Notes under the pieces: generated by a model
Databases searched by the model: none
What the model saw: the letters and a program-made list of their open reading frames with translations, nothing else
Told to the model about the DNA's origin: nothing
Shown here: positions 1,561-37,140 of the stretch, piece by piece
Position numbering within the stretch: the first letter of the stretch is position 1
Layout of the letters: every line of letters starts with the position of its first letter
Source: Eledone cirrhosa
Taxonomy: Eukaryota
Reading direction: 5' to 3'
Length of the DNA stretch: 64,000 nt
NCBI GenBank assembly: GCA_964016885.1
Contig: OZ024740.1
Location: forward strand, 67,332,001 to 67,396,000
Position numbers and translations under genes: made by a program

Positions 1561-1596
1561 TTATATATATATATACAAACCGTTTATATATATATA

Positions 1597-1786: not shown

Positions 1787-1873
<87 letters not shown>

Positions 1874-2480: not shown

Positions 2481-2538
<58 letters not shown>

Positions 2539-2758: not shown

Positions 2759-2997
<239 letters not shown>

Positions 2998-3000
<3 letters not shown>

Positions 3001-9904: not shown

Positions 9905-10192
9905 GTTATCATATTTTGATGGGCTTATGAGTTCAATTCCAACCGAAGATAATTTTTTCGATAAAATAAAACACAAGTAATGTAATTTAATTGATTGTCT
10001 CCACCACGAAAATTGTTGGCTTTGTGCCTAAATCAGTAAGCATTATTTGATGCATAGTTACGGCCCTTTATGGTCTGAGTTCAAATCCCACCGAGGTTAA
10101 CTTTGCCTTTCATCCTTACGGGGTCGATAAAATAAAGTACCAGTAAGGCACTGGTTAATTGCTGGCCTTGTGCCAAAAGTAGAAACAATTAT
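9905..10192 (+). mobile_element. Two SINE copies (degenerate 9905-10045; 10052-10192)
   Basis: ctgagttcaaatcccaccgaggttaactttgcctttcatccttacggggtcgataaaataaagtaccagt. Confidence 0.85.
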
Positions 10193-14182: not shown

Positions 14183-14327
14183 AAAGGCCCAGATATTATA
14201 CTTTCCCCTTCACGGGGCAAGTCTAAGGGCTTATATCCCTTACACAACAAGAAATATTTAACAACATCATTTTAACAGGCAAATAAAGCGACTTACTTTG
14301 AGCGACCAAAATACGTCCGCTTAGACC
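14183..14327 (-). mobile_element. 5' end (5' UTR) of a Tx1 family-B element; the remainder is missing
   Basis: About 6 mismatches over ~145 bp versus 27971-28116. Confidence 0.85.
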
Positions 14328-14594
14328 AATAATAATAATAATAATAATAATGTTTTCTTTATTAACCACAAGGGTTTACATAAAGTAGACATTAAGGACA
14401 GTACAGGACAATACAGGACGGTACAAATGGGCATTTCTGCGTGTAAAAAAAACAGAGGATGTAATAAAAGAAAAAAGAAAAATTCCACAATAGGGGGGAG
14501 ACCCGAGGGACATTTGTGGAGAAAGCCCATTAAAAGGCCACATTTGACCCTGTCCACCAAGGAAAGTGCCCTCTCCCAGTTGTCCACCTTTAAA

Positions 14595-17500
14595 TTACAG
14601 ACACATACTCAGAGTAGGCCCATTCACTCGGGCCATTCTTGCTTCTCTCACCATTCTTTGAACAAAATGCTGGGAAGAGAGCACTTCCCTCTCTACCCTG
14701 ATTTTCCTGTTCAAATGAAATTTGAATAAGTTAATCAGGGCATCACCGAAAAGGTATGTGCTCGTCTTCAGCCCTTTCAAACGTGTCCACCATACTATCT
14801 CTTTCGCCACAGCCACCAGACATATAAAAACTACCTGCCCTTCCCGTCTAAAGGAGGAGGGCGGGGCAATCCTCACGATGGACTCAGCTGATAGCTGGAT
14901 CCGTTCTACACGTGACAGCAGGTGTTCGACATAAACCCACAAGTCAGCAATGCTCGGACACTGGACGAGTGCGTGCAGGACGGTTTCGTCGCCCTGCGCG
15001 CATCTCGGACATGCCCGGCTGACGGCACCTCCATGCCGGTAGAGTTTATCCCGAACTGGCAAAGCTCTTCGGTAGCACTGCCAGGCCAGGGATTTCTGGA
15101 AGTTGGCCATAGGCCCCGGCCCGAAAGTCCTTCCGAAGATATTGGCTAGTTGATTTTCGTCGACGCCTAGAGTTTCTCCAAGTACGTCGTCGCTCTTCCC
15201 TTCCACTAATCCTCTATAGAACGCCAAGGTGGAGTTTCAACCGATCACATTGCCCGATTGGTCGAGGGCTGGGAGCGCCTGAAGACATTCCTGTCTCCAA
15301 GCGCTCCCTCTCGGGAGACGAGCTGGGCCAAGACGTGTCTAGCAAACGGCGACCACACCTGATCACCGTCGGGGAAGATGTGGAGATGTCGTAGCCTGAG
15401 CGCGTGTCTGCGCATCATCAGCCACGGCATGCCCAACCCTCCACGTAGCGTGTGTTGACAGCAGATGGACCGCCTAACCATCGGAGCGCGTCCCTTCCAC
15501 AAAAAGCGAAAGAGCAAACGCTCCACCGCAGTTAGGCGGGGCTTATGACAAGGTATGACGATCAGGCGGTAGTAGACGACGGACGCGATGTACGCGTTAG
15601 CCACCTCCGCTCGACCTTTCAGGGATAGCTTCCTCTCCGCCCATTTCTGGGTGAGAGAAGCCACCCTGCTCGTCACCTCGTCCCAGTTTTTGTCCGTCTG
15701 GAGGTCCACCGAGCCAGACCCCTAGCAATTTAACCGGTCCGTCCGTCCAGCGCCTGACGACGCTGTTGGACGGCATGGACCTGCCTCTCCAGGTGCCGAG
15801 CTGCAGCCCCACTAACTTTTCCTGGTTGATCATTGCTCCTGTCACCGCTTCGTATTCTCTTATTGTAGTGCCGATCGCCTCGATGTGTTTGGCGTTCGAC
15901 ACCACTACGGTGACATCGTCCGCATATGCTGACACGGATCTTCCGCATCCTTTTTCGCGCGGGGCCCCCCTCAACGTCTCCAATGTGTGATGTAATGGCT
16001 CGAGAGTCAATACGCACAAGAGGGACGAGAGGGGACATCCTTGGCGGACCGAGCGCATGATGTTGAACGGTTGCGTATGGTGACAGTTCACTCTCACCAC
16101 AGAGCAGATGTCGCTGTGCATGGCAGCGATCCAGCCTCTAAAGACGGGCTCAAAGCCAGCCACCCTCAGGACTGCCGCTAGGTAACGATGGTCGACCCTA
16201 TCCAAAGTTTCGACTGATCTAAACTGATCAAGGACCCACCCGTGACAGGTTCCCTAGATACCCTCTCTACGATGTATCGCATGAGGTGGAGGTTGTCGTG
16301 GATGGATCTGTCGGGAATGGCGCACGTCTGCGCCTCTCCCACCAGACCACCAACGACAAGCGCCAACCTCTTTGCTAGCACCTTGGCCAAAATCTTGAAA
16401 TCTGTGTTTTAGCAGAGTTATGGGCCTACAATTATCTATATTATCCCCCTTGTTCGGATCCTTTCTCAGCAGCGCCACAGCTCCTCGGCTCACAGAGCTG
16501 GGAATTATCCCGTTCTGTTGCCAGTTGCAGTAGACGTCCGCCAAGAGGCCTCCGAACAATTCTGGCATCTGTACGTAAGGTTCATAGTGCAGACCATAAA
16601 AACCAGGCGATTTACCCCTTGGGCAGCCAGTCATTTCCTCCCGTGCTTCAGCGGCTGTTATCGGCTTTTCGCAACACTCCGACTCAGTGGCCGAGAGACG
16701 CAGCAGTCCGTCGAGGTTAACACTAATGTCCATCCTTCGATCAGGCCCGCCGCTGCCCCCGAAGAGCTGTGGGAAGTGTCGCTGAAAAGCTTCACACATT
16801 TGCCCGGGATCGAGTAGCATGCGCCCGCCGTGGTACACCAAAGACCGGACCGTGGCTTTGTTGCCATGACGCGCCTCCGCAACTCGGGCCCATTGAACCG
16901 CTTTCGTCCCCTCGTGTCTGAGAGCACGCACCCTAGCTTTGATAAAGCAGCCTTCGTCTTTGCATTGATGAATTGGTCAAGGGCCAATTTCGCCGCAAGT
17001 ACGTCGGTCGCGATGTCTTTGCTAAGCGCCTCGTCTAATTTTCTAACTAATTCTCCCTCTGTTCTATTTTTCTCCATTGCTAAAGCCTTACTACACCTAA
17101 TGAAATCTATTCTAATTGCTCCTTTCAGAGCAAACCACCACTTGTTGTTGACGAAGGCCCCCGTCAATGCCCACTTAACTAGTTCGCTAATCCGGTCTAT
17201 GTAGGCCTTGCGCGCTGGTAAGGACGCGTTTAGCTTCCAGTAGCCGGGTCCTCGTCTATGAAGCCTATCTAACTCAAGCACACAGATAACGAATTTCTAG
17301 TCCGTGTAGCTGACTATCTTGAATTGTGGACAGCCTATGCTAGACCTATCTATTTCGCTACAAAATACTCTATCTAGATATGATCTGGATGACCCTATGC
17401 GATTTGTCGAAGTCCACATTGGCACATTCGAGATATCCAATCGGTACCTGTCAGACAGTTCAAAACGTCTGAGCAGGTTGGTGGGGCTTTTGCACCCTCC

Positions 17501-17974
17501 TCCCCTATCCGCTGATCCCACAAAGTCCCAGCGTGCATCTAAGATCCCGTTCCAGTGGAAACATGAAAGAGCGGGACGTTCCAAGAAAGGTCTCCAGCCG
17601 CCGGAAGAAATCAGACCGCCCAGCTGCTTTCGGGGCATAGACAGCCACTAGCCTGAAAGCTTGCCCGGCTCCGCTGGTCACGTCCAGTACCACGAACTTA
17701 CCTTCTGGGTCCAGGAAGATGGCCCGTATGGCGAGATCCAAACCTCTCCGAAAAAGCACAGCAACTCCTCCCCCCGATTCCGGACGGCTGGGAGATGCGT
17801 ACACGTCGTAGCCGCCGAAGATCGGTTCTAAGGCCCGCGCTTCGGAGATTCTGGTCTCGCTGATGGCCACTACATCTATGTTTAGTGACCTGAGGTCGTT
17901 GAGCAGGTGAGCCCTGCTTCCATGACGACCCCCAAGCCACGCGCATTTATGCTGCCTATTCTGAGTGAGGTCAT
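14595..17974 (-). pseudogene. Tx1 ORF2 (APE endonuclease, reverse transcriptase, C-terminal CCHC), frameshifted
   Basis: MTSLRIGSINARGL..AISETR; GPGYWKLN; GKSPG; RPITLL; SVRQGCPLS; SAYADD; LSLKGRAEVAN; CPRC..ETVLHALVQC. Confidence 0.93.
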
Positions 17975-18008
17975 GTTGAAATGGTGTGGAAAAGATGGTT
18001 AAAACAAC

Positions 18009-19877
18009 TTACCTTACTTCTCGTAGAGGAAGGATGGTTTTTCCATCCTTTTCACTGCCTGTGGCCTCCTCCGGAAGGATGTCCTTATAAATCCTCCTGA
18101 AGAGTGTTTGTCGGAATTCTCCGATGTCCTTGGGGAATTTTTATTTTAGTGTCGTATACGTTTTCTGTGTGATGCGAGTGATTTGTATGTGTGGAGGCAG
18201 TGTGAACTTTTGGGTTGTTGTGTAGTCTTTTTCTGTGAAGCTGGTGTTGTGTTGGATGTAGTGTAATAATTGGTTGTGGTTCAAATTTAATGCTGTGTAG
18301 TGTGTATCGTTTTGGTTGTTTTGTTTTGTTTGCGTTTGTTGTGGTTTGTTTCTGTTTCGCTTTTTGGTGACTTTTGTGGTGTAGGTGATGGTGGTGTTGT
18401 GGTTAATGATGGTGATGGTGTTGGTGTTTGTGGTGATGGGGTTGGTGATGCTGGTGTGGATGGTGGCATATCTGTCCTAACTTTTTTGTTTGATAGTTTA
18501 TTTGTTTCCCTCTGTATTTTGTTTTTTTGAGGGGAAGGAAGAGAATTTTTCTAATTGGTTTCTTTTATCTTTTTTCCTGATACCGTTTCCCACTCCTCGT
18601 CTTCACAATCTCTCTCCAGTTGTGATAGGCCGGGGAGTGGAAAATCCTCCACAGGCGTTGGTTTCGGTTGTGGCGTGGTGGATGGTGTAGGTGCTGGTGC
18701 TAGTTCTGGCGCGTCGGGTAGTGGTGGTGTAGGTTTTGCTACTGTTGCTGGGGATGTTGCTGTTACAGTTGCTTCTGTTGTTGCTGCTACAGTTGTTGCT
18801 GCCATCTCTGCTGCTGGTGGTGTTGATGGTTGAGTCACTCGGTGGGTAAGAGAGGTGGCCTCAACCTTTTAGCCTGAGGGCAGAAAGCCCTTAGGTGGGT
18901 TCCTTCACCACAAACGACACACCTAAGCCTTCTGCCCTCAACGATTACGGTGAGGTGGCTGCCGTCAGTGAGGTCTATTACCTCTGGGATCTCCTCAATG
19001 CTTGGTTGCTCCGCTTGGATCAGGAGCTCCATCCCAGATCCGGACCAGTTCTCCTGCTTTTCTTTCGCTATTTCGATTATCTTGGTGTTGGCTTCGATGC
19101 CGGCGAGGACGGCAGCTATTAGCCAGGGAAGTGGGTCACCCTGAACTTTACGAGTCTCTGGCCACAATAGCTTGGGACGAGTGTGAAGTCGTCACTTCTT
19201 AATGGGGCCATGGAGTGTTCTCTAGCCTTCTGTGGTGTTTCAAAGAACACGTCCACGGTTCCATATTTCTGCCCACGTCTGATGTGGGTTTTTTTTTGCC
19301 CACACATGTCCCAAAGTTTTTTGGATTTGGGACTCGGATGCCCGTTCCACTCAGCGCGATGTTATGTTAATTGTTCGATAAGACACGGTGCATAGGCACC
19401 GATGCTCCATTTTATTAGGTGGTGAGCCTGACCCTGTACCCATCTTTCTTTACCATTTTTTTGGCTTCGTCTAATTCCTCCTGAGTTACCTGAAATGCTT
19501 CGCACTGTTTTGCTACTCTGGCAAAACTCAGGGTGGTTTTCTTAATTTCATCGTTATTTTTGTTATTGTTAATTTTAGTTTCAGTTGTGGTGGTGGTGGC
19601 GTCAGTGGTGTTCGGTATGGAAGAGTTCATTTTGGTTGAATTCATTTCGATATCACGAGTTAATTTATTTTTTTCTTTTGTTTCTGTTGTTGCTGTGGTG
19701 GTGGTGGGGTGGCGGCTTTTACACCTGCAGTCATTGGTAATGAATGTCTGCCTGAGACAAATTTTTAATATTGCTAGTGCTTATATTTTTAGTGTTGGCA
19801 AACGTAGTAATATCTACAATGGTGTTGTCGGTGTGAAGTGTTAGTTTGTGAGGAAGGTGTGACTGTGAGTCATCCAT
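18009..19877 (-). pseudogene. Tx1 ORF1 (gag-like, zinc knuckle, Thr/Pro-rich), frameshifted
   Basis: RRLRCVVCGEGTHLRAFCP (CX2CX4HX4C); YGTVDVFFETPQKAREHS; stop TAA at 18009-18011. Confidence 0.8.
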
Positions 19878-20182
19878 GATTTTTTCAAATACATTTTTGT
19901 TTGATAATTATAAAAGTTTAAATTTTGGGCTCAAGGCCCCTATCTTTTTGAGTGTCCTTTTCAGAAAACAATGTATGTGCATTTATATACAGTTAACAAT
20001 AAAAAATTTCCATAAATGGTAATTTTAAACAACTGGAAACAACAAACCTTTGCAGAGCTCACTATGATACGATTTACTACGTAGGTCGCCAATAATAATA
20101 ATAATAATGATTTCATTTATTGGCCACAAGGGCTGACATATAGGGGACAATACAAAAGACTAGGACAGTCGGGTTTTACAGA

Positions 20183-20186
<4 letters not shown>

Positions 20187-20228
<42 letters not shown>

Positions 20229-22140
20229 CCATTTTACGTCCGTTCTTCCACGTTGGTATGGGTTAGACGGGTTGTCCTGTTGTGGGCAGTGTCTGGCCGG
20301 CTGACCATGCCTTGCTCATACAGGAACTGATTTGGCTTGATTTCTACAGCTGGATGCCCTTCCTAACACCAACCTCATTTACAGTGAGTGCTGGGTGACT
20401 TTTCGTGGCGCCTACACGTCCACTTTACAGTGTGGGCTGGGTGCTTTTTTGCCGTAGCACATCCACGACCACTTTGCAGTGGGGGGTGTGGGCGCATATT
20501 GTCTATATGCTTCAGCTTGTACCCATGGGAGGTCGGGTACTCTATATTACTGCGTGACGCCAGAGGTAACGGTCCTGTGTCATTGCCTTTGAGAGGTGTA
20601 ATTGGGTAAGGTCGGCTTTTATCACCTCATCCCAGGTCATCTTGGGTCTCCCCACTCCACGGTTTCCATCGACTTCTAGTGCTCTGCACCTTTTTATGCA
20701 GCTGTCATCCTTCATACGCATCACATGTCCATACCAGCGCAACCGCCTCTCCTGCACACAGCATTTGATTCCTCTTATGCTCAGTCTCTCTCTCAATTCA
20801 TTTATGCTTTGTCGTTCACGTATATTACTGTTACACATCCATCGGAGCATGCAGGCTTCGTTTCTCTCTAATCCATGTAAGTCTTCTACCTTCAGCGCCC
20901 AGGTCTCACTACCATGCAACATTGCTGTTAGGATAGACGCATCATACAGTCTGCCTTTCATTCTGAGGGAGAAGCCTTTTGCAGCTAGCACTGGTAGTAA
21001 ACTTCTTCCATCCCGTTCTTACCCTAGTTATTGTAATTTCTGAACACCCACCTCCGCTGCTAATTCGGTCACCTAGGTAGCAGAAGCTGTCTACTGTTTC
21101 TACAGAGCCCTCCCAGAGATCGGTGGTATTTGTTTCCTGTGGCTGTTTGCTGCTTGCTGTCCCAGCACAACTGCTGCATGTGAAGCCTACATTCTTAATT
21201 AAGCTTCCTGAGATCCCGCTACATCTCTTGTGTACCCATTGTTTGCATTTGGGGCAGAAAATGGAGTTCCTACCTACACCTTTCCTACATACTGATTAAG
21301 GCCATTTCCCTGAGGGGATCTGGGTTCTGTTTTCTCGTCTACTTACAAGGACCTTAGTCTTTGTATGTTGACTTTGAGACCCTTTCTTTCTAGTCCCTGC
21401 TTCCAAGTTTGGAATTTCTTCTCTAGTTCTACCATAGATTCAGCTATAACTGCGAGGTCATCAGCATACAGGAGTTCCCATGGGCATCCGGTCTTAAACT
21501 CCTCCGTTATTGCCTGCAGGACTATGATGAACAGGAGGGGGCTTGGAACAGAGCCCTGGTGTACCCTAACCTGTACGCTAAATTCCTCACTATACTCATT
21601 GCTAATCCTAACTTTGCTGACTGCTCCCCTATACATGGCTTGTACCGCTTTCACAAGCCATTCATCTACTCCTAGTTTTCTAAGAGCCCACCAGATTACT
21701 GCACGTGGAACTCTGTCAAAGGCGTTCTGAAGGTCGACAAATGCCAAGTAGAGTGGCTTACTTTTAGCTAGGTACTTTTCCTGTAACTGCCTCATAAGGA
21801 AGAGGGCATCAGTGATGCCTCTTCCTGGTACAAATCCAAATTGCATCTCGTCTATTTTCACCCGGTCCCTAATCAAATGTGCTATAACTCTTTCTGTTAC
21901 TTTCATGACCTGGTCCATCAACTTAATAGCTCTATATTTTCCTCAATCTAGTGCATCACCTTTACCTTTGTAGCAGTTGACAATGATGCTACTGCACCAA
22001 TCTTTTGGTATGACACCTTCTAGTATTACCTGGTTAACAATACGTCTGGTTATAGTGTGACCTACAGACCCAGATGCCCTCAGCATCTCGGCAGCTATAC
22101 CCGATGGACCGGTTGCCTTCCCCATCTTCATATCTTTCAG
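20187..22140 (-). mobile_element. 5'-truncated RTE/RTE-X-like LINE with a (GAT)n tail, nested in the Tx1-B 3' UTR
   Basis: GKATGPSG..IVNCYKGKGDAL; QFGFVPGRG..AFVDL..AFDRV; VHQGS.SPLLF; LYADD; Cys-rich insert CSVCRKGVGRNSIFCPKCKQWVHKRC; LHGSETW..RRLRWYGHV; (CAT)n on plus strand at 20187-20232. Confidence 0.92.
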
Positions 22141-22321
22141 TAAACAATATGAATAACAATAACAAAGTAACAATAAATTAACAATAAAATTACAAGAAAA
22201 AATTCCCCAATAGGGGGGGATGACCACCTAGGGTTCGCTCAGGTACCCCACCATTCCTCAACGACCCGACGCTTCGAGAGCACCCTGGAAGGGAACCCCT
22301 CTCCTCTTCAAATTTACCTAC

Positions 22322-25300
22322 CTACAGCCGCATGACCAGAGTAGACCCACTCACACGGGCCATTCTCGCCACATTCACCCACCTTTCAGCAAATGTACCC
22401 GGGGGGGGGGGGGGGGGGGGGGGGCAGCACTACTCTCTCCACCCTCACATTCCTTTCCAAGTGAAACTTGAAAAAGTTGATGAGGGATTGGCCGAAGAGA
22501 AAAGTGTCTGTCTTCAGTCCTTTCAACCTCGTCCACCACACAACCTCTTTGGCTACTACACGCGACAACAGTTGTTCAACAGTAATGCACGGACACTGGA
22601 TGTGTGCGTGCAGAACGGTTTTGTCGCCCTGTGAGCATCTTGGGCAGGTCCGTCTGACAGCACTTCCGTGACTGTAGGGTTTATCTCGAACCGGCAGTGT
22701 CCCCCGGTAGCACTGCCAAGCGAGGGATTTTTGGAAATTATCCATCGTCCCCGGCTCGAAGGTCCTCCGGTACAGACTGGTTAGTTCGACTTCGTTGACT
22801 CCCAGAGCCTCTCCGAGTGCGTCGTCGCACTTGCCCACCACTAATCCTCTATAGAACTCGAGAGTGGAAGTTCCACTAACCGCATTGCACGCCGGGTAGA
22901 GGGCAGTGAGTGCCTGGCAACATTCCAGATGCCAATCACCCAGTTTCGGTTTCTTCTTGACCCAGGACTGCAACTCACAAAAAGAAACGAGCTGCGGAAA
23001 GGCCCGTCTGACAAACGGAGACCACACCTGTTCACCGTATGGGCAGAATATCTGGAGATGCCACAGCCACAGCGCGTTCCTGCGCATCATTAGCCACGGC
23101 ATGCCCAGCCCTCCACGTAGAGGGTGCTGGCAGCAGATGGACCGCCTAACCAGCTGAACCTGACCCCTCCACAAGAATTTGAAGAGAAGCCGCTCCAAGA
23201 TGGCAGCCACGAATGGGGGCAAGGGACGACAGTCAGACGGTAGTAGATAATGGACGCGATGTACGCGTTCGCCACCTGCGCCCGACCATTCAGTGATAGC
23301 TTCATCCCAGCCCACGTCTGGGTGAGACTGACTACCCTGCCCGTAACCTCGTCCCAACTCTTATCCACCTGAAGGTCTGGCCCGAACCAAATCCCTAGCA
23401 ACTTTACTGGTCCATCCGTCCAGCGCCTAACGACGCTGTTCGACGGCATGGACTTGCCTCTTCAGGTTCCGAGTTGCAAGCCCACTAACTATTCCAGGTT
23501 AAGTTTTTCTCCCGTCAACCTTTCATATTCCTCCAATAAGTTGCCGACCACCTTGATTTCTGAGTGTCCGACAACATCACGGTGATTTCGTCCGCATAAG
23601 CCGACACAGCCTTTCCCCGTTCCGGTTCGAGCGGGATGCCCTGCAACAGCTCCAGCTTCCGCAGTAAAGGCTCGAGAGTCAATACGTACAGAAGGGAGGA
23701 GAGAGGGCACCCTTGACGGACCGATCGGGAGACTTGAAACGGTTCCGAGAGGTGGCCATTAATTTTGACCATCGAGCAGGTGCCGCTGTGCATTGCAGCG
23801 ATCCAGCTTCTGAAGACGGGGCCGAAGCCAACCGCCTTGAGGAAATCTAGTCGGTACCTGTCAGACAGTTGGAACTGGCTGTTCAGGTTCATGAGGCCTT
23901 TGCACCCCTCGCTCCTATCGGATACTCCCACACAGTCCCAGCGTGCGTCTAAGATGCCGTTCCAGTCCCCCGCTAACAGTAAAGGGCGAGACGTACCCAG
24001 AAAGGCTTCCAGGCGTCTAAAGAAGTCCGGCCATCCTGCCCCAGTAGGAACATAGACGGCCCTCAGTCTAAAGGCACCACCTTCATTATTGTTCACGTCC
24101 ATGACCGCCTACTTCCCGTCCGGGTCCCGGAAGATCGACCTTACCTCGAGATCCAGGCCTTTCGAATGCTTTCGATTGATCTAAATTGATCAGAGCCCCA
24201 CCGAAGCCAGGTTTACACCCTACTCTCTCTATGATGTATCGCATTAGGTGGAGGTTGTCGTGTATGGACCTGGTTGGGATTGCGCAAGTTTGTGCCTCCC
24301 CAACCAAATCCCCGACGACAAGCGCCAACCTCTTCGCTAACACCCTAACCAAAATCTTAAACTCTGTGTTGAGCAGAGTTATGGGCCTGAAATTGTCTAA
24401 TGTGTCCCTCTTATTCTCGTCTTTCCTTATCAGCGTCACTACGCCCCGGCTCACAGAACTGGGAATACTCCCGTGTTGCTGCCAGTTGCAGTGGAGGGCT
24501 TCGAGGTGATTGGAGAACAAGTCTGACATATTTACGTAAAGCTCGTAGGGCAGACCATCCAAACCAGGTGACTTGCGCCTCATGCAGCCGACAAGGGCAT
24601 CCTGAATCTCGGCTGAAGTAATTGGCCTTTCGCAGCACCCAGCGTCAGCCGTCGAGAGTTGTGGCAAGCCATCGAGGTACAGACTGAAGTCCGCCACCAT
24701 CTCTGACCCGTCACTTCCCCGAACAACCGAGCAAAATGTTGGCGAAAGGCCTCACACATCCTCTTGGAATCTCTCAGCTCGTGCCCGTCTCGGTCCGTCA
24801 AAGACCGAATCGCGGTTTTATTTCCACGCTGCGCCTCTGCCACGCTGGCCTATCGAACAGCTTGAGTTCCTTCGTTTCTCATAGCACGCGCCTTAGCTCT
24901 GACAATGCAACCTTCGTGTTTCGCATTGAAAAAATGGTCTAATGCCATTCTCGCCGCTAGCACATCAGTTGCAATGCCACTACCAATAGCCTCGTCTAAC
25001 TTATCTACCAACTCCCCCTCCTTTCTATTTTTCTCTAATGCTACTTTGCTAAAATCTATCGACATTACTCTAATCTCTCTTTTGAGAGCCCCCCCCCCCC
25101 ACCACCACCATCTATTGTTGACGACTCCCCCTGTCAACTTTTTCTTAACTAAATTGTTGACCTGGTCCCTGTAAGCCTTACGTGCCGGAAATGAGATGTT
25201 TAGCTTCCAGTAACCCGATCCTAACCTACGCGTCTTATCTAGGTTGACCATACAGATCACAAACTTGTAATCTGAATGGGCGACCGTTTCAAAACGTGGA

Positions 25301-25961
25301 CAGCTTACACTATTTCTGTCTATTTTCCTAATGAATATCCTGTCTATATACCATCAAGATGACCCTATGCGGTTAGACCTGGTCCACACTGGCGCATTAT
25401 GGAAATCTAGTCGGTGCCTGTCAGACAGTTGAAAATGGCTGATCAGGTTCATGAGGCTTTTGCAGCCCCCCCCCCCCCCCCCCCGCTCCTATCGGTTACG
25501 CCCGCACAGTCCCAGCGTGCCTCTAAGATGCCGTTCCAGTCCCCAGCTAACAGTAAAGGGCGAGACGTACACAGAAAGGCTTCCAGGCGTCTAAAGAAGT
25601 CTGGCCGTCCTGTCCCAGTAGGAGCATAGACGGCCACCAGTCTAAAGGCACCACCGTCATTATTGTTCACGTCCAGGACCACCAACCTCCCGTCCGGGTC
25701 CCGGATGATCGACCTTACCTCGAGATCCAGACCTTTCCTAAACAGCACTGCCACCCCGCCTTCCATTCCCGGCCAGCTAACAGATGCAAAGATCTGATAG
25801 TCGTCGAAAATGGGGGCTAGTGTGCGCGTGTCGGAAATCCTGGTCTCGCTGACTGCAATTACATACATTTCTAGAGACCTGAGGTCGTTGAGCAGGTGAC
25901 CCTGTTTCCAGGACGATCCCAGGGTTCGAACACTTAAACATCCTACTCTTAATACGGCCAT
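22322..25961 (-). pseudogene. Tx1-B ORF2 (APE-RT-zinc finger), frameshifted and internally rearranged
   Basis: MAVLRVGCLSVRTL..AVSETR..VYAP..AGDWN; GSGYWKLN; KSPGLDG; NFRPITLLN; DQSKAF; VRQGCPLS; SAYAD; CPRC..HAHIQC. Confidence 0.92.
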
Positions 25962-25992
25962 GTTGGCAGGTTAAACAGAGAGAGAGGAAGGT

Positions 25993-27910
25993 TTACTTAC
26001 CTAACGGGCTCGTGTGAAGGTCGATTTGTTCGACCTCCATAGCTAGTGCGATTTCTGTTGCGAACCCCTTTAAAAGTCTTGCAGTGGGTTTTACGTTCGG
26101 GGCTCCCACGTCCCGAGGAAAGCTGTCTCGTATTTTTTTGAATAAGTCGAGCGACATTCGCACCAGAACCAAATCTTCCGGCAAGCGAAATGTGCTCGAT
26201 TTAAAAATTTCTCCCTCTTTTTGTATATTTTCACTTCGTGCTACGAGGGCCATCAGCTCGTTGTTGCCCCTCCTGACGAGCACGAAGTTTTGTATGTTTT
26301 GTTGGTGTGATTTTATTTGTTGCGTGGCTTTGGTGGTGATGGCTTTGGTGGTGTTGTTTCGGTTCTATCTGTGTTTGTTGTGACTGCGGTGTCTGTGGTT
26401 TCAGATGTTTGTGTGTATATTTGTTCTTGCGTCTGTTTCGGTTGTTTGCGTTTGTGCGATTCTGGTGATGGCGATGGTGGTGTTGATGTTGGTGTTATTG
26501 GAGTGATGTTTGCGTGGGTGGTGTCTGCGTCTTTTTGGGGGGGTGCTTTTGTGCTTTGTTGAGTTTTTTTTTTTGTTGTGTTTCCTTTTATGTATTTTGG
26601 GGGATTTGGGATTTCCCTCATTTACACTACTGGTAGATGAGGGGTCTGTGTCTGTATGTATGTTTATGGTTTTATTGGTGTGTGTATTTAGGGGGGAGGG
26701 GGAATTTGACAGCTTTCCTCGTTTCTGCGCTGGGTGGTCAATGTTGGTGGTGGTCTTTCTATTGGTGTTGTTGTTGGTGGTTTTGCCGGGGCTGGTGTTG
26801 ATTGTGGTCTTGGCCCCGGCGTCGACCCCTTGCCTCTTTCAGCAGAAGGCTCGCAAATGGGTTTTTTCTCACAAACAAAACACTGCGGCCTTTTGCTTTC
26901 GGTCATAATGTGAATGACCGTCCCATTCTGAAGGTGGATGTGGTCCGGAATTGTCTTCACATTCTCGGGCCTGATCTGGAGAAGGATCTCGAGGTCAACC
27001 CCGGACCAGTCCTCTCTGGCCGTACTGGTCACTTCTATAGGGACTGTATCCGTCCCCTCCACAATCACACATCCCAGAAGCCACCACATGTCAAGTCCTG
27101 GTGGGATTCTTGGAATGCGGAGACGGGACGTTCTTTTTCCCATGTGGGAGGGGAAACATTATGACCTTGCTGGTTTTGCAAGGAGTCATAGCGTGTTTCA
27201 TAGCGAGGGCTTCTGACTTGAACAACACTGAAATGGTGCCGTACTGTCTGCCCCTCTCTATGTACTGGGTGTCTTCTCTGATGCACCTCAGCGCGACTTA
27301 GACATCTTCTTGTGGGATTAAAGCTGCCCTTTTGGTTTGTGCTGAGATGCATCTATAATGCACCGTTTTGCGCTCCACTGCTCAATAGCTTCTACCGGGA
27401 CAGTTAAGTTGGTCCAAGTTTGCTCTTGCTTGATGAGCTTCCATGCCTGGGCCAACTTTTCATCTTTGTTTGAGAGGTCCATGTTGAAGCATGGCCTCTT
27501 TTTTGCTGCTGCCGCAGCGAATGTATTCTTCTTGTTTTGTTGTCGTTGTTCTTGTTGGTGTTGTTGTTAGCACTGTCGCTGTTATCATTGTTGTCTTTGT
27601 TGCCACCGTGGTTCTAGGTGCAGTTGGTATTGTTGCTGTTTGTGTTGTCGCTATTTGTTTTCATGTTAGTGGTGTTGATATTGTTGTTGTATTTGTTATT
27701 TTTTTTTTAATCTGTATTTCGTTGTCGCTTTTAATGTTATTTTTTTTCAAAATTAGAATTCTCATTGGTATCATTGGTGTCTTTGTTTACGTTGTTTGTG
27801 GTGGTGTTTGTGTTATCAATGTGTGTTAATTTCGCAGTAGCGCTGCTCTCAACTTCCACGTCGTTGTCGCGTGACAGCAGACATATCGCTGGAGGGCGTG
27901 TCTCAGCCAT
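25993..27910 (-). pseudogene. Tx1-B ORF1, frameshifted
   Basis: MAETRPP start; KRPQCFVCEK..HLRAFC knuckle; EDWSGVDLEILLQ resembles family-A ENWSGSGMELLIQ. Confidence 0.75.
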
Positions 27911-28116
27911 GTTTTTTTTTTTCTTCGTAAATTTTTCAACATGTAAAAAAAAGTTCAAATATTGGGGCCAAAAGGCACAAATATTATACTTTCCCCTTCA
28001 CGGGGCAAAGTCTAAGGGCTTATATCACTTACACAACAAGAAATATTTAACAACATAATTTTAACAGGCAAATAAAGCGACTTACTGTGAGCGAGCAAAA
28101 TACGTCCGCTTAGACC

Positions 28117-28155
<39 letters not shown>

Positions 28156-28156
<1 letters not shown>

Positions 28157-31100
28157 CTTACTTTATTAACCACAAGGGTTTACATAAAGTAGACATCAAG
28201 GACAGTACAGGACAATACAGGACGGTACAAATGGGCATTTCTGTGTTTAAAAAACAAAAACAGAGGATGTAACAAAAAAATAACAATGAAAAATTTCCCA
28301 ATAGGGGGGAGACTTCGGAGGGACATTCGTGGAGAAAGCCCATTAAAAGGCCACAGTTACCATGACCACCAGGGCAAGTGCCCTGTCCCAGTTGTCCACC
28401 TTTAATTTACAGACACATACTCAGAGTAGACCCATTCACTCGGGCCATTCTTGCTTCTCTCACCCATCTTTCAACAAAATGCTGGGAAAAGAGACCTTCC
28501 CTCTCTACCCTGATTTTCCTTTTCAAATGAAATTTGAAAAAGTCAATCAGGGCATCACCGAAGAGGTAAGTGCTCGTCTTCAGCCCTTTCAAACGTGTCC
28601 ATCATACTGTGTCTTTGGCCATGGCCACCAGACAGATAAAAACTACCTGCCTTCCCGGCTAAAGGAAGAGGGCGGGGCAATCCTCACGATGGACTCAGCT
28701 GATAGCTGAATCCGTACTACACGCGACAGCAGGTGTTCGACATAAACCCACATGTCAGCAATTCTCGGACACTGGACGAGTGCGTGCAGGACGGTTTCGT
28801 CACCCTGCGCGCATCTCGGACATGCCCGGCTGACGGCAAATCCATGCCTGTAGAGTATATCCCGCACTGGCAATGCTCCTCGGTAACACTGCCAGGACAG
28901 GGATATCTGGAAGTTGTCCATAGGCCACGGCCCGAAAGTTCTTCCGAAGATATTGGCTAGTTGATTTTCGTCGAAGCCTAGAGTTTCCCCAAGTACGTCA
29001 TCGCTCTTCCCCTCCACTAATCCTCTATAGAACGCTGATGTGGAGTTTCCACCGTTCACATTGCCCAATTGGTCGAGGGCTGTGAGCGCCTGAAGACATT
29101 CCAGTCTCCAAGCGCTCTCTCTCGGTCTTTGCTTGACCCAGGACTGCAGCTCCGTCAAGGAAACGAGCTGGGGAAAGACGCGTCTAGCAAGCGGTGACTA
29201 CAACTGATCACCGTCGAGGAAGAGGTGGATATGTCGTAGCATGAGCGCGTGTCTGCGCATCATCAGCCACGGCATGCCCAACCCTCCACGTAGCGGGTGT
29301 TGACAACAGATGGACCGCCTGACCATCGGAACGCGTCCCTTACACAAAAAGCGAAAGAGCAAACCCTCCAGCGCAGTCAGGCGGGGCTTATGCAAGGTAC
29401 GACTGTCAGGCGGTAGTAGATGACGGACGCGATATACGCGTTAGCCACCTCCGCTCGATCTTTCAGGGTATAGCTTTCTCTTGGCCCATTTCTGGGTGAG
29501 AGAAGCCACCCTGCTCGTCACCTCGTCCCGGTTTTTTTCCGTCTGGAGATCCGCACCGGACGAGACCCAGAGCAATTTAACCGGTCCGTCCGTCCAGCGC
29601 CCGACGACGCTATTGGACGGCATGGACCTGCCTCTCCAGGTGCCGAGCTGCAGGCCCACTGACTTTTCCTGGTTGATCATTGCTCTTGTCACCGCTTCGT
29701 ATTCTCTTAGTGTGGTGCCGATCGCCTCGATGTGTTTGGCGTTCGACACCACTACGGTGACATCGTCCCCATATGCTGAAACGGATCTTCCGCATCCTAG
29801 TTCGCGCGGGACCCCCTCGACGTCTCCAGTCTGTGCAGTAATGGCTCGAGAGGCAATACGTACAAGAGGGACGAGAGGGGACATCCTTGGCGGACCGAGC
29901 GCATGATGTTGAACAGGTCCGAAAGGTGACCGTTCATTGTCACCACAGAGCAGATGTCGCTGTGCATGGCAGCGATCCAGCGTCTGAAGAAGAGCCCAAA
30001 GCCAGCCGCCCTCAGGACTGCCGCTACTAATGATGGTCGACCCGATCGAAAGCTTTTGACTGATCTAAATTGATCAAGGACCCACCCGTGCCAGGTTCCC
30101 TAGCTACCCTCTCTACGATGTATCGCATGAGGTGAAGGTTGTCGTGGATGGATCTGTCGGGAATGGCGCATGTCTGCGCCTCTCCCACCAGACCACCAAC
30201 GACAAGCGCCAAACTCTTTGCTACACCTTGGCCAAAATCTTGAACTCTGTGTTTAGCAGAGTTATGGGCCTGAAATCATCTGTTATCCCCCTTGTTCGGA
30301 TCCTTTCTCAGCAGCGCCACCGCTCCTCGGCTATAGGAGCTGGGAATTCTCCCGTTCAGTTGCCAGTTGCAGTAGACGTCCGCCAAGAGGCCTCTGAAGA
30401 AGTCTGTCATCTGTACGCAAAATTCATAGGGCAAACCATCCAAACAAGGCGATTTACCCCTTGTGCAGCTAGTCTTTTCCTCCCGTACTTCAGCGGCTGT
30501 TATCGGCTTTTCGCAACACTACGCCTCAGTGGCCGAGAGACGCGGCAGTCTGTCAAGGTAGACACTAAAGTCCATCGCTCAATCCGACCCGCCGCTGTTC
30601 CCGAACAACTGAGCGAAGTGTCGCTGAAAAGCTTCACACATTTTCCCGGTATCGAGTAGCATGCGCTCGTCGTGGTCCACCAAAGACCGGATCGTGGCTT
30701 TGTTGCCACGACGCTACTCCGCCACTCGGGCCCATTGAATGGCTTTGGTCCCCTCGTGTCTGAGAGCACGCACCCTAGCTCCGACAACGCAGCCTTCGTG
30801 CTTTGCTTTGAAGAATTGGTCAAGGGCCAATTTCGCCGCAAGTACGTTGGTCGCGATGCCTTTGATAAGCGCCTCGTCTAATTTTCTAATTCCCCCTTTG
30901 ATCTATTTTTCTCTATAGCTAAAGCCTTACTAAATCTAAAGAACTCTATTCTAATCGCTCTTTTCAGAGCAAACCACCACTTGTTGTTGACGATGGCCCC
31001 GTCAACGCTCGCTTAACTAGTTCGCTAATCCGGTCTCTGTAGGACTTGTGCGCTGGTAAGGACGCGTTTAGCTTCCAGTAGCCGGGTCCTCGTCTATGAA

Positions 31101-33283
31101 GCCTATCTAATTCAAGCACACAGATCACGAATTTGTGGTCCGTGTAGCTGACTATCTTGAATTGGGGACAGCCTATGCTAGACCTATCTATTTCCCTACA
31201 AAATACTCTATCTAGATATGATCTGGATGACCCTATACGATTTGTCCAAGTTCACATTGGCACATTCGGGAAATTCAATCGGTACCTGTCAGACAGTTCA
31301 AAACGCCTGAGCAGGTTGGTGAGGCTCTTGCACCCTCCTCCCCTATCCGCTGATCCCACACACTCCCAGCGTGCATCTAAGATCCCGTTCCAGTGGCCCA
31401 CAAACATGAAAGAGCGGGACGTTCCAAGAAAGGTCTCCAGACGCCGGAAGAAATCAGATCGCCCTGCTGCTTTCGGCGTATAGAGGGCCACAAGCCTGAA
31501 AGCTTGCCCGTCTCCGCTGGTCACGTCCAGCACCACCAACTTACCTTCTGGGTCCAGGAAGATGGCCCGTATGTTGAGATCCAAACCTCTCCGAAAAAGC
31601 ACAGCAACTCCTCCCCGATCCCGGACGGCTGGGAGATGCGTACACATCGTAGCCGCCGAAGATCGGTGCGAAGGCCCGTGCTTCGGAGATTCTGGTCTCG
31701 CTGATGGCCACTACATCTATGTTTAGTGACCTGAGGTCGTTGAGCAGGTCGCCCTGCTTCCATGACGACCCCCAAGCCACGCGCATTTATGCTGCCTATT
31801 CTGAGTGAGGTCATGTTGAAAAGGAGTGGAAAAGATGGGAAAGACCACTTACCTTAGTTCTCGTAGAGGAAGGATGGTTTTTCCATCCTTTTCACTGCTC
31901 GTGGCCTCCTTTGGAAGGATGTCCATATATATCCTCTTGGAGTGTGCTTGTTGGAAGTCTCCGATGTCCTTGGGGAATTTTTGTTTTAGTGTCGTGTACG
32001 TTTTCTGTGTGACGCGAATGATTTGTATGTGTGGAGCTGGCGTGAATTTTTGGGGTGTTGTGTAGTCTTATTCTGTGATGCTGGTGTTGTATTGGATGTA
32101 GTGTTATAAGTGGTTGTTGTTCAAATTTAATGCTGTGTAGTGTGTATTGTTTTGGTTGTTTTGTTTTGTTTGCGTCTGTTGTGGGTTTGTTTCTGTTGCG
32201 CTTTTTGGTGACTTTAGTGGTGTTGGTGATGGTAGTGTTGGGGTTAATGTTAGTGATGGTGTTGGTGTTTGTGGTGATGGGGTTGGTGATGCTGGTGTGG
32301 ATGGTGGCATAGCTGTCCTAACTTTTTTGTTTGATAGTTTATTTGTTTCCCTCTGTATTTTGATTTTGGAGGAGGAAGGAAGAGAATTTTTTATTTTAGG
32401 GTTTCTTTTTATTTTTTTTATTTTTTCCTGATACAGTTTTCCACTCCTCGTCTTCACAATCTGTCTCTACTTGTGATAGGTCGGGGAGTAGAAAATCCTC
32501 CACAGGCGTTGGTCTTGGTTGTGGCGTGGTGGATGGTGGAGGCGCTGGTGCCAGTTCTGGCGCGTTGGGTGGTGGTGGTGTTGGTTTTGCTACTGTTGCT
32601 GGGGTTGTTGCTGCTACAGTTGCTTCTTTTGTTGCTGCTACAGTTGTTGCTGCCATTTCTGCTGCTTGTGGTGTTGATGGTTGAGTCACTGGGGTGTGTA
32701 AGAGAGGTAGCCTCACCTACGACACACCCAGGCCTTCTACACTCAAACATTACGGTGAGGTGGCTGCCGTCAGTGAGGTCTATCACCTCTGGAATTTACT
32801 CAATGTTTCTTTTGGTCCGCTTGGATCAGGAGCTCCATCCCAGATCCGGACCAGTTCTCCTGCTTTTCTTTTGTTATTTCAATTATGTTAGTGTCGGCCT
32901 CAATGTCGGCGAGGACGGCAGCCATTTGCCAGGGAATTTTAATGGCAGGCGGAACCTGGGTCACCCTGAACCTTACCAGCCTCTTACTACAATAGCTTGG
33001 GAGGAGTGTGAACTCGTCACTTTTTAATAGAGCCATGGAGTGCTCTCTTGCTTCCTGTGGGGTTCCAAACGACAAGTCCACGATTCCATATTTTTGCCCA
33101 CGTTTGATGTGGGTTTTTGAGCCCACACATGTCACAATGCTTTTTGTATCTGGGACTCGGATGCCCGTTCCACTCGGCGCGTTTTAATGTTTATCGTGCG
33201 ATATGATACGGTGCATAGGCGCCGATTCTCCATGGTATTAGATCGGAGGTGAGGCTGACCCTGTAACCATATTTTTTTAACAT
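28156..33283 (-). mobile_element. Tx1 family A copy 2 (ORF2 28407-31814; ORF1 from 31849), 5' part lost at ~33283
   Basis: Collinear with 14352-19450, roughly 90% identical by eye. Confidence 0.93.
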
Positions 33284-35107
33284 CAGTCCTAACTGAATGT
33301 ACATACGATCACCTGATAACAAATGATCTATTTCCCAATGAGCAGAAAGGGTGTAAACGAGGCTCATATGGCTGTAAAGATCAGCTTTTGGTTAACAAAA
33401 TGATACTGGAAGATTGTCATAATAGACACACAAATCTATCGATTGCTTGGATAGATTATAAAAAAGCATTCGATAGTTTGCCACACAGTTGGATTGAAAA
33501 ATGTTTAGAGATTTTTAAAATATCTCCCGTTGTCAGGATGTTCCTGTCATTCAGTATGAGGACATGAAAAACGACACTCCTTTTGAATAGTGAAAACAAA
33601 TCACTGGAAGCTGTAGAAGTTAATATTAATCGTGGAATTTTTCAGGGTGACTCTTTATCACCGCTTTTATTCTGCATCGCACTTATACCATTAAGTAAAA
33701 TGCTCAATGAAACAAAAACATAGATATAAAGTCTATGACAAAACCATTAATCACCTGTTCTACATGGATGACCTGAAACTATTTGCAAAAAATGATGAAC
33801 AATTGCAAGGGCTATTATCCACTGTGGAGCAGTTCAGTGATGACATTAAAATGGAGTTTGGACTAGATAAATGCGCCAATGCAACGTTCACGTGAGGAAA
33901 AATATCTCCCTAGGAGAGAAGGAGGACGTGGGTTAATCCAGTTCGATATTGCATTGAAAACTGCAACAATTGGATTATCTACATATCTAAGGGAATCACT
34001 TGATTGGATGATCAAACTCGTTTTGAAACACGAACGCATCAAAAGATCATACTCCATTACAAAAGATGCACAAAGATATAGTAATGGACTACACATTTCA
34101 GAAATTCCATTTACTGCTGAAATGAAAAACACATAATAAGCAAAGCAGGTAAAAGTAATTGCAAAGAAAGAACTGCTACAGAATCTGGCTAAGAAATGGC
34201 AAGAAAAGCCTCTGTATGGAACATTTCCAGAAAGAGCTAACAATTCTGATGTTGACAAAACTTTAACCTATCAGTGGTTGGCATCCTCTGGACTGAAATC
34301 GGAGACTGAATGACTAATTACATCAGCACAAGATCAGTGTCAGCCAATAAAAAATTAGCAAGCCAACATAATAAAAAATGGATGCAAACCATTATGCCGT
34401 GTATGTAAAAAACAACCAGAGACCATTGATGTGCAGTCCTATAGCTCCCACCGAATACCTAAACAGGCACAACAGAGCTGAACAATATATACATTGGATA
34501 ATGTGTAAGCATTTTGACCTGCCCCATCACAATAATTGGTAGGAGCATCAACCACCTCCCGTACTTGAAAAAGATCACATCTCAATCTTGTGGAACTTTA
34601 GCATCCATACAGACCGAAAAATATATGCAAATAGACTGATATAATACTGAAGGACTTTAAAAAGAGGGTATGCCTGCTAATTGATATGTCCGTTCCAATA
34701 GACAAGAATGTATCTATAAAAACATTTGAAAAATTGAGCCAGTATTAGGACCTGGTGATAGAAATTGGACAAATGTGGAGGTTGAGAACTAAAACAATAC
34801 CCGTGGTTGTAGGCGCTCTAGGAATGATACCTAAGGGGTATTTACTTATCGCAAATCCCAGGAAACCCGTGTATAGAAGAAGTACAAAAGATAGTACTAA
34901 TGGAAACTACTATATACTAAGGAATATTCTGTCAATATAAGTACATCACAAGTCTAAACACCTAAAGATGCATGTGTGTGTATGTATGTCCTTTCTTTAA
35001 CATGGCGGACATTCTTGTCTCTTGAGGTCACAGGTTGTGACTTGGTGATAACTCGTATGAACATAAAGCAAGATAAATGCAACTCTAATAATAATAATAA
35101 TAATAAT
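33280..35107 (+). mobile_element. R4/Dong-clade RLE non-LTR retrotransposon, 5'-truncated, internally deleted near 33890, with a (TAA)n tail
   Basis: NEQKGCKRGSYGCKDQL..AWIDYKKAFDS; RGIFQGDSLSPLLF; HLFYMDDLKL; YLPRREGGRGL; SETE..ISAQDQ; CRVC..ETID; RHN; ILWNFSIHTDR..NR.DI; IPVVVGALG; (TAA)n 35086-35107. Confidence 0.9.
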
Positions 35108-35378
35108 GGCAGTGAAGATAATTGTTTCATTTATTGGCCACCAGAGTCCATTCAGCATATAAAATTAAGTGCAAAATTGTTTACAGGATAGTAGATTTGT
35201 ACAAATACAGCTATATTAAAATGATGTTTGTGCAAGGCCGTTATACCTCGTATATACAGACATGAAATTGTGACAGATATATACATCGAATAAATGCACA
35301 CACATAGGTATGTATGCGTGAATATATATGTATGCAAACAAAGACACATATGTATATACATATTCATTTATATATATA

Positions 35379-35789: not shown

Positions 35790-37140
35790 CACTTCAATTT
35801 AGTATAATAAATTTATAAATTTAGGAATTTATAAATTTCCGGTTGGTTGGTTCCACAACCAGATGATTGTTTATATATTGTCAAAGTTCTTTCGTCACAC
35901 ATTTTGTGACCTCTTCAGTGACTGGGTATTATTTTCTTTGTTTGTGTGCCTCTCCTTTGTTCTGTCCTACGCCACCTTGTTTTTGTGTGTGTTGTGTGCT
36001 TAGTTTGCGCATGTGTTACATCCGGGTGTCTGTGTGCGTTTATATTTGTTTATTTACATGTTACTGGTTGGTTGTTTGTTCTAAGTGCGTGTGTATTTTC
36101 ATTTTGTCCTTAATTGTAAGTTGTGATGTTGCTGTTCCATTCATGTTTTCTATGTAATTTTGGTTGGAGTTCATTTATGTTTATTGCCTCTGTGATTTGT
36201 CTAAACATTGCGTCTTTTCTGTGTGCAGATTCTATTTTTATTTCTATGTTCTCTAATTTACCGTTATGTTCTATTTTAGCATGTTGGTAGAGTACAGATG
36301 ATTCTTTACTATCTTCGAAGTGTTCATTTATCCGTTCCCCTATACTACGAGCTGTCTCACCTATGTACACTATATTCTTATCTCTACATTGTCCTTCAGT
36401 ACATCTTATGCTATATACTATATTTCTATTTTTACAGTTAATATGGGGGCTTAATTTACAGATTATACATTTCTTATTTATACAGTGTCTTTATTGAGGT
36501 AGCTGGTCTTTCTACTATCTTAATATTGAGTTTGTGTTTATCTTGGGCCCTTCTAAATTTGTAAGCTAATTCACCTCTAGGGGTTGTATCGATGAACATT
36601 ACACTCTGGTATTTATTGCTATCATACCATGAGTTTATTCTATTAACCTTATTCCTAGTTCTTTCTATTCAAATTCAAAAATTTGCTCCTAGACAAGGGG
36701 CAGGTCCCATTTGTGTCATTATTTACCATTTTTTCCCATTTGGTTCTGGCTCCTCTATATACTCTGATTTTATCTCTCTGATTGTAACCAGAGAACTGCA
36801 TACGGTGGATGAAGTGTTGTACCATCACGTATTCTGCCACACACACTTAGACATCCATGTCCACACCCTTTTAAAGGGATACAACCCTTTATCCACCTAA
36901 CCTTCACTCTTTGACATCAGAAATAGAATGGAATTTCTATACTATTTCCTGTCAGCATGACTTGGCAAGATAATTAGAACACTGGATTAACCCCTTTACT
37001 TCCCCCCTAAGAAGAGATATTATCTCGAAAATTAAGGATATTCAAATAAATTTAAGGTAAAAGACATTTTGTCAGCAATATCTTTTGCATTTGTATTTAT
37101 ATTCTATATCTATACCTGCATTGTTCTGGCCTTCTAACTC
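35790..37140 (-). mobile_element. Penelope-like element 3' fragment (region C-terminal to the RT, GIY-YIG endonuclease, 3' UTR)
   Basis: FIHRMQFSGY; CIICKLSPHINCKNRNIVYSIRCTEGQC..VYIGETARSIGERINEH..RQITEAININELQPKL. Confidence 0.85.

Follow-up and report, generated by a model that had tools for sequence, protein, structure and literature searches.

The window analysed here is a 64-kb stretch of the Eledone cirrhosa genome (contig OZ024740.1, positions 67,332,001 to 67,396,000). Its minus strand carries an array of two LINE families, A and B, whose order was read from the sequence as A2-(ATT)13-B-(ATT)6-A1-(ATT)8-B' (Table 1). The array had been described earlier from the letters alone and is real, except that B' amounts to only 145 bp; its body was found nowhere within the window. 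The tails (CCTTGTGG..AATAAA..) and the heads (GGTCTAAGC for B, twice, and GGCGACCTA for A1) match that description, and the heads were taken as true 5' termini, since the same first base recurs in 29 further copies of A and 29 of B. Stops and frameshifts interrupt every copy in the array. The joint between B' and its flank was spanned without difference by one contig from a public run, which may be the source sample. A look for expression brought up no RNA data set. An Rfam search of positions 13500-36000 returned no match at gathering score, and RNA genes (snRNA, tRNA, 5S) were rejected as heads or targets on this ground.

Table 1. Features of the array and adjoining elements, in window positions
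Feature	Coordinates	Strand	Basis or detail
B', a 145-bp head of family B; next come TTATTAT and flank	14183..14327	-	95% to B reference 1-148
(ATT)8 tract, A1 tail / B' head	14328..14351	-	sequence
A1, full-length decayed L1-group LINE	14352..20090	-	ORF1; ORF2 with APE, RT, zf-RVT; 3' CTTGT hairpin
A1 endonuclease-region private variant, common to A2 only	17560..17585	-	2 exact genome-wide matches vs 4,638 by degenerate pattern
(ATT)6 tract, B tail / A1 head	20091..20108	-	sequence
B, final 80 bp: 3' hairpin and AATAAA	20109..20188	-	comparison with B reference
5'-truncated LINE (presumed RTE-like), (GAT)n tail, within B 3' UTR	20189..22138	-	RVT_1 E 3.7e-28
B, full-length decayed L1-group LINE	22139..28116	-	ORF2 ~70% identical to A
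Extra endonuclease-coding fragment in B ORF2, ~25 bp replaced	23833..24163	-	330 bp
(ATT)13 tract, A2 tail / B head	28117..28155	-	sequence
A2, 5'-deleted A copy, no ATT at 5' joint	28156..33283	-	sequence comparison
A2 endonuclease-region private variant, common to A1 only	31403..31428	-	exact genome-wide matching
5'-truncated single-ORF LINE without APE (presumed R4/Dong-like), back to back with A2	33284..35085	+	
(TAA)7 tail of the presumed R4/Dong-like element	35086..35106	+	same microsatellite, other strand

Including its insert, B spans 28116-20109. The 1.95-kb insert in its 3' UTR, which from its motifs we take to be RTE-like, was delimited by comparing the junction with intact B copies. 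The extra endonuclease fragment in ORF2 is 88% identical to B's own 25393-25737 and 93% identical to positions 2437-2768 of the B reference. A2 is without the first ~640 bp of A, and its own first ~570 bp (about 32710-33283) are derived from a sister subfamily.

In both families ORF2 encodes an N-terminal APE endonuclease (PF03372) followed by a reverse transcriptase (RT, PF00078), as found in pieces from the window and in intact natural copies. The best PDB match of ORF2 was human L1 ORF2p (E 1e-45), with R2 at 4e-21 and no other clades among the matches; A and B are L1-group LINEs. Elements of the Tx1 clade have an ORF1 with a CCHC knuckle and an ORF2 with a C-terminal zinc finger. The knuckle CxxCxxxxHxxxxC was read in the ORF1 of A (in a natural copy) and of B, and zf-RVT (PF13966) was found in the C-terminal part of ORF2, features that are not exclusive to Tx1. 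The sole element-named match among the 120 matches listed was a 'Transposon TX1 uncharacterized 149 kDa protein' from Stylophora (31% over 710 aa), a name that may be an automatic transfer. The anatomy is Tx1-like, and A and B likely belong to the Tx1 clade. Dong/R4 elements are distinguished by a single ORF with a C-terminal restriction-like endonuclease and no APE, whereas both ORF1 and APE are present in A and B. At least five related families, with ~5,000 or more copies in the genome, build mixed same-strand arrays.

The original inference of (ATT)n-specific insertion was supported genome-wide. Among best-hit full-length copies, a sample biased towards little-diverged copies, every head followed ATT under a loose rule (A 29/29, B 29/29) and most did so under a strict rule (28/29 and 26/29), with the ATT|GG phase kept in 28/29 heads of each family. 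Among pattern-picked B-type heads, drawn from C1 only, 39 of 40 stood directly after (ATT)n. Taken together, ATT in a single orientation precedes 97 of the 98 heads sampled outside this locus. At random positions (ATT)3 lay just upstream in 0.06% of draws under the strict rule and 0.85% under the loose one; exact matches to (ATT)3 plus the A head numbered 2,149 genome-wide as a raw count. The observed proportions (58/58 and 39/40) lie far above the >20% of flanks in one repeat type by which microsatellite specificity is recognized in PMC4494074.

Simple 5'-truncated A copies begin after ATT at 11 of 13 distinct loci, and since such copies cannot have brought a 5' ATT with them, this counts for targeting. 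The same host repeat was found empty with (ATT)6 at locus L241 and filled by a truncated A copy at L177, the two being paralogues rather than alleles. Tract length and upstream hosts differ widely among copies. Target-site duplications are mostly hidden in pure ATT, the only candidates being at L169 and at L106, where 12-14 bp are duplicated at a short ATTAT-like site. Upstream ATT is absent from the other 2/13 truncated A copies, from the simple truncated B copies (0/3 with ATT) and from A2, all of which count against the explanation preferred below.

Same-orientation stacking also held across the genome: of 99 neighbour pairs, 25 lay within 13 kb against ~2 expected, and 24 of the 25 were on the same strand. 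The four arrays examined mix five head types, and further tandem copies occur within arrays at L007, L150, L236 and C1:37.2 Mb. Junctions of all types (A-A, A-B, B-A, B-B) were seen, so A/B alternation is not a rule. Nor was the suggested special targeting of each other's tails shown. Pattern-picked heads followed a LINE tail in 21/40 cases, whereas 4 of about 60 random tracts did so (p 5e-7). Set against 3/14 long tracts, the same heads gave p=0.06, and all heads pooled (33/98) gave p=0.54. The frequency with which LINE tails host heads is roughly what their proportion among long ATT tracts would allow, and because the upstream element may have come later, tail-specific targeting was not accepted.

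For the block itself, the variants shared by its members were the more informative evidence. The endonuclease-region variant common to A1 and A2 is otherwise absent from the 4,638 copies located by degenerate pattern, and B and B' have a common 2-bp deletion (3 matches, the third in a sister family, versus 403 normal). Over A 1489-5509, A1 and A2 share 13 private states against 3.7 expected, although four of the 13 are clustered in 9 bp and may reflect a single event. Because both pairs have common private variants, the A-ATT-B-head unit appears to have been copied locally. It is likely that one A-B pair was duplicated here long ago, rather than that four separate jumps took place. Overall identity and trees were set aside as tests of duplication: A1 is 92.6-94.2% identical to all 15 unlinked copies and only 91.4% to A2, and the trees lack resolution, joining A1 and A2 for ORF2 at only 45% support and separating them for ORF1. 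Tandem duplication of an A-B unit, originally offered as the alternative, is the better local reading by private variants and is opposed by overall identity and by the unresolved trees.

The copies sit in (ATT)n in fixed orientation, probably through targeting, and the block probably arose as an early local DNA-level copy of A-(ATT)n-B. The APE endonuclease would nick the (AAT)n strand, where the 3' hairpin and (AUU)n end of the RNA would pair and prime reverse transcription. ATT would remain on both sides, so that the target would be regenerated every time and elements arriving later, possibly from any ATT-targeting family, could stack head to tail. Here the flanking ATT tracts may have undergone unequal exchange, or a single long gene conversion may have taken place, so that soon after insertion a segment reaching at least from A position 1489 to B position 65 was copied. 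Most of B' and the head of A2 would have been lost afterwards through deletions. Two or three such later deletions are required by local copying, which weighs against it.

The main reading first proposed for the locus, four independent insertions each into the tail of the preceding element, agrees with the occurrence of all join types elsewhere, with an overall A1/A2 similarity no greater than that of unlinked copies and with the origin of the 5' part of A2 in another subfamily. It is largely refuted by the private A1/A2 variant, the B/B' deletion and the excess of shared states, and we regard it as highly improbable. A single 3' transduction, in which read-through RNA from the then intact A2 extended through the ATT into the initial 145 bases of B and went back into the tail of B as A1-B', would account for the common variants and the short B' together. 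In its favour, the TTATTAT after B' resembles a target remnant, and only ~5% of the A1/A2 changes are common (13 of 192 and 216), so that the family was likely still active at the time of copying. With roughly 200,000 tracts in the genome (about 60 per 0.79 Mb), reinsertion into the neighbouring one would need local hopping, which is not known for LINEs. Among the 40 pattern-picked heads no other ends at 145 followed by ATT, and head-only fragments are produced by other routes (L308, L313), making transduction unlikely.

Two further explanations concern the ATT itself. If the RNA of the elements carried (ATT)n at both ends and was inserted at short AT-rich sites, the nearly invariant ATT|GG phase would follow, and the truncated B copies, the L106 duplication and a SINE with the same tail that lies mostly at single ATTAT sites would fit. 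The ATT upstream of most truncated A copies, the empty and filled host pair and the wide variation in tract length and upstream hosts speak against such cargo, which we judge very unlikely. Ordinary LINEs without targeting, multiplied by tandem duplication or passively retained in microsatellites, would agree with the local duplication signal, but hardly with 97/98 heads following ATT in one orientation; passive retention predicts neither fixed strand nor phase, and this explanation is scarcely credible.

The abundant SINE has the same 3' hairpin (CTTGT) as A and B, with 3-4 bp of stem and about 25 nt in common, and its duplications start with ATTAT. R4/Dong elements have one ORF, about 1,200 aa long and lacking APE, with an R2-like RT, and a TAA tail. 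The opposite-strand LINE beside A2, which from its motifs is presumably R4/Dong-like, has homologues that carry RVT_1 but none of the APE families; its best PDB match was R2, and a PDB search with one piece of it gave no match. It ends in a TAA tail and uses the same tracts as A and B in the opposite orientation, sharing tracts with A-type elements elsewhere too. A possible but tentative wider picture is that the (ATT)n-targeting Tx1-type LINEs form a single radiation in which 5'/ORF1 parts can be exchanged on common ORF2 modules. These LINEs would drive the CORE-type SINE by way of the common CTTGT hairpin and would have their microsatellite in common with an unrelated, oppositely oriented LINE with a restriction-like endonuclease. 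The self-renewing ATT landing pads would grow into arrays of several elements and then duplicate by tract exchange.

Microsatellite-targeting Tx1 families are already known, namely Kibi (TC)n, Koshi (TTC)n and crocodilian (TTCC)n/(TTTC)n elements (PMC4494074, PMC3812793). They resemble A and B as APE-encoding L1-group LINEs found specifically in a microsatellite; A and B differ in their (ATT)n target, octopod host, number of families and copies, and mixed arrays. Dong elements target TAA microsatellites (PMC3812793) and Dong-R4 elements are abundant in octopus (PMC13282606, PMC8967140). The microsatellite is the same, but A and B have ORF1 and an N-terminal APE, are closest to L1 ORF2p and have ATT rather than TAA on the sense strand. 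Tx1-Mar, a target-preferring Tx1 LINE, is accompanied by SINEU with a weaker form of the preference and forms tandem copies by sequential insertion (PMC4494074). A, B and the SINE would parallel this pair in all three respects, unlike it in having a microsatellite target and a SINE link through a common 3' hairpin and ATTAT-starting duplications. A 3' stem-loop is shared by stringent-type LINE/SINE pairs (PMC3747384). In A and B, too, a small hairpin at the 3' end shows compensatory changes in its stem and precedes a short tandem repeat, but just the short stem and about 25 nt are common here and the role of the hairpin is putative. An (ATT)n target for Tx1-type LINEs was not found in the published papers searched (Repbase and Dfam lay outside the search).

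Since local copying can produce neat alternation, the joins of a given array should not be counted as independent insertions. According to PMC3812793, how microsatellites come to be targeted is not well understood. The present results supply an insertion rule for a large octopod LINE group, whose L1-Tx1 elements are counted in octopus papers that, in their accessible parts, describe no target, and a candidate LINE partner for the highly abundant SINE. They also offer a natural case in which to test how one microsatellite came to be used in opposite orientations by an APE and by a restriction-like endonuclease.

The array of the original prediction proved to be real: on the minus strand the window reads A2-(ATT)n-B-(ATT)n-A1-(ATT)n-B' (G000:C1:67332001-67396000, where C1 is contig OZ024740.1 of the 3.0-Gb assembly), A1 and A2 being copies of one LINE family and B and B' of another. 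Every A or B copy in the window is broken, and A2 is missing ~640 bp and has no upstream ATT.

Features of the window, with the array and its neighbours
Feature	Position	Strand	Remark
A2	33283-28156	-	then (ATT)13
B	28116-20109	-	then (ATT)6
RTE-like LINE within B	20189-22138		
Extra endonuclease fragment within B	23833-24163		
A1	20090-14352	-	then (ATT)8
B'	14327-14183	-	145-bp head only
Opposite-strand truncated LINE abutting A2	33284-35085		(TAA)7 at its end
Scrap resembling a B-type tail, ~23 bp	35124-35146	-	immediately ahead of an (ATT)7 tract; not long enough to assign
SINE copy	6542-7803		
SINE copy	10046-10187		
SINE copy	40874-41043		
SINE copy	63150-63335		
Penelope-like piece	37200-39465		
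Penelope-like piece	36100-36500	-	
Weak GIY-YIG match	38695-39465		E 0.008, below cut-off
~70% relative of A and B	47431-48030	+	after (ATCT)n at 47353-47414
Direct repeat, ~2.6-kb period	~59900-63150		identical flanks at 59959 and 62594

Judged from their predicted proteins, A and B are L1-group, Tx1-like LINEs, because ORF2 contains APE, RT and zf-RVT domains and ORF1 a CCHC knuckle, the best match of ORF2 among solved structures is human L1 ORF2p (E 1e-45; R2 at 4e-21), and, among 120 matches listed, a single homologue bears the name of an element, the coral 'Transposon TX1 149 kDa protein' (31%). The two families share ~70% identity in ORF2 and 32% in ORF1. Among named relatives, B ORF2 is nearest to a sequence from Argonauta hians (65% identity), which makes an octopod host likely. 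Exact patterns from A-type ORF2 had at least 4,638 (26-base, ~3.4 kb from the 3' end) and at least 4,964 (32-base, ~0.95 kb) genome-wide matches, both lower bounds that include sister families. The counts are alike, which suggests that 5' truncation is unusually rare for a LINE, although the two patterns are of unequal length and cover different ranges of families. Module swapping was also observed (loci L234, L205, L255-L265 and L268-L282): family D joins an A-type ORF2 (95%) to its own head and ORF1, a sister-subfamily ORF1 lies behind A-like as well as B-like heads, and B/A chimeras at L154 and L166 have a joint without ATT.

The proposed link of these LINEs to (ATT)n held genome-wide. Among the best 30 of 40 scored loci per head, with the window's own removed, at least three ATT in the 18 upstream bases (loose rule) were found for 29/29 A and 29/29 B heads, and a perfect (ATT)3 within 3 bases (strict rule) for 28/29 and 26/29; the ATT|GG join was present in 28/29 of each. 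To reduce best-hit bias, a further 40 loci were drawn from the first 100 exact matches to the B-type head listed for C1, four already-listed places being skipped, and 39/40 passed the loose and 38/40 the strict rule, against a background of 0.85% and 0.06% in 79 random 10-kb stretches. (ATT)3 plus the A-type head had 2,149 genome matches. Upstream of the tract the host varied between LINE tails, SINE tails, opposite-strand LINEs and plain repeats.

Whether this tract is target or cargo was assessed from 58 tail-anchored loci, of which 35 extended past the retrieved sequence, 5 had a complex structure and 18 were simply truncated, the repeats L019 and L025 then being dropped. Simple truncated copies began after ATT in 11/13 A and 0/3 B cases, and a single host repeat occurs both in an empty form with (ATT)6 (L241) and with a truncated A copy at that same point (L177). 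These comparisons favour the tract as target rather than cargo, with a stronger case in A than in B. LINEs insert by target-primed reverse transcription; here the APE would nick the (AAT)n strand, and the (AUU)n end of the RNA would pair and prime at the nick, fixing orientation. ATT would remain on both sides, and the target would thus be renewed. An A-type ORF2 copy in L205 has ATT followed by (CTT)n at its end, so a related trinucleotide may be acceptable in the tail or in the target.

Arrays are common. Among 100 listed endonuclease-pattern matches on C1, 25/99 neighbour pairs lay within 13 kb against ~2 expected, 24 on the same strand, and four fetched arrays mixed five head types, A to E (e.g. 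D-D-C-D and D-A-C-D). Alternation of A and B as a rule was not borne out, since A-A (L133, L136, L140), A-B (L131, L135, L138), B-A (L151, L167) and B-B (L303, L308, L320) joins all occur; alternation itself is ordinary. Nor was targeting of each other's tails upheld: a LINE tail was the host for 12/58 best-locus and 21/40 pattern-picked heads against 4/~60 random tracts of at least 4 units and 3/14 of at least 18 bases, an excess over long tracts that was not significant. Further tandem copies were found in L007, L150, L236 and an array at C1:37.2 Mb; they include a triple 158-bp tail fragment (L007/L019), an 8.9-kb period repeat (L150) and a B-like 5.8-kb tandem repeat, 99.5% identical, that is recent or an assembly artefact (L236).

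The A-B-A-B' order in the window likely reflects local copying of one A-ATT-B pair, as its sequence variants indicate and as the original prediction had allowed in its alternative of a duplicated ~13.8-kb A-B unit. Overall identity pointed the other way (15 unlinked copies are 92.6-94.2% identical to A1, against 91.4% for A2), and trees left the A1/A2 relation unresolved. Counting from A position 1300, 13 states common to A1 and A2 were found in 0/15 other copies, against 3.7 expected; these span 1489-5509, four within 9 bases. For one such variant the genome has exactly two matches, both at this locus, compared with 4,638 when the pattern is made degenerate. A 2-base deletion common to B and B' has 3 matches, of which the third falls in a sister family, compared with 403 matches of the undeleted form. 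Only ~5% of changes are common to both copies, and the copy is therefore of almost the same age as the insertions. Over its first ~570 bases, A2 follows a sister subfamily. Copying probably occurred at the DNA level, either through one long conversion or through an unequal exchange in which ATT tracts paired and deletions came later; reinsertion of a read-through RNA next door is possible but would require local hopping. (ATT)n targeting and local copying both appear to be at work.

Other elements are linked to the same motif. The abundant SINE, also found in random loci and which we take to be CORE-type, has the CTTGT 3' hairpin and ATT end in common with A, B and C. In a collection for which the CTTGT loop was the search term, the hairpin was kept in 63 A-type, 40 B-type, 11 C-type and 137 SINE tails, whose stems differ yet pair. 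In a 12-sequence alignment 3/4 pairs change on both sides, and the covariation score was reached by 0/500 shuffles, a control that related sequences can exceed without structure. A permissive search without chance control gave flanking duplications in 37/64 random SINE copies; 33/37 start ATTAT-like, and the SINE preference is therefore for the same motif, but weaker. The A/B-type LINEs are likely the SINE's partner.

The opposite-strand LINE lacks an APE, has R2 as its nearest solved structure and is presumably R4/Dong-like, from its motifs. Such LINEs (window 33284-35106; arrays L268-L282) are found in the same tracts but face the other way, often bounded by ATT on either side. What we take to be U2 snRNA-like sequence (L008:545-700) begins immediately after an A tail plus (ATT)18; it may be a U2-headed element or a retrocopy on the same target. 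More distant relatives of A and B (~70%), also present in L173, L205 and L240, adjoin (TATC)n or (TC)n, a hint that this genome may carry several such families that differ in the microsatellite they target.

Known Tx1 families use (TC)n, (TTC)n, (TTCC)n and (TTTC)n in the available text of PMC4494074, whose figure 3 names further targets, whereas A and B are tied to (ATT)n; tandem SINEU copies also appear there. Excerpts elsewhere list Dong as TAA-targeting (PMC3812793), Tx1 and R1 as the APE clades with target specificity (PMC4640811) and octopus OR2 as a CORE SINE (PMC4758252), with general background in PMC3747384 and PMC11203168. Octopus L1-Tx1 and Dong-R4 are counted in PMC13282606 and PMC8967140, the available portions of which describe no insertion targets for them. 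The literature searched yielded no Tx1 or L1 family specific for (ATT)n; Kojima and Fujiwara 2004, Repbase or Dfam may hold one. What makes these families worth follow-up is the ATT rule seen across the genome, together with their likely SINE partner and a target common with an unrelated LINE.
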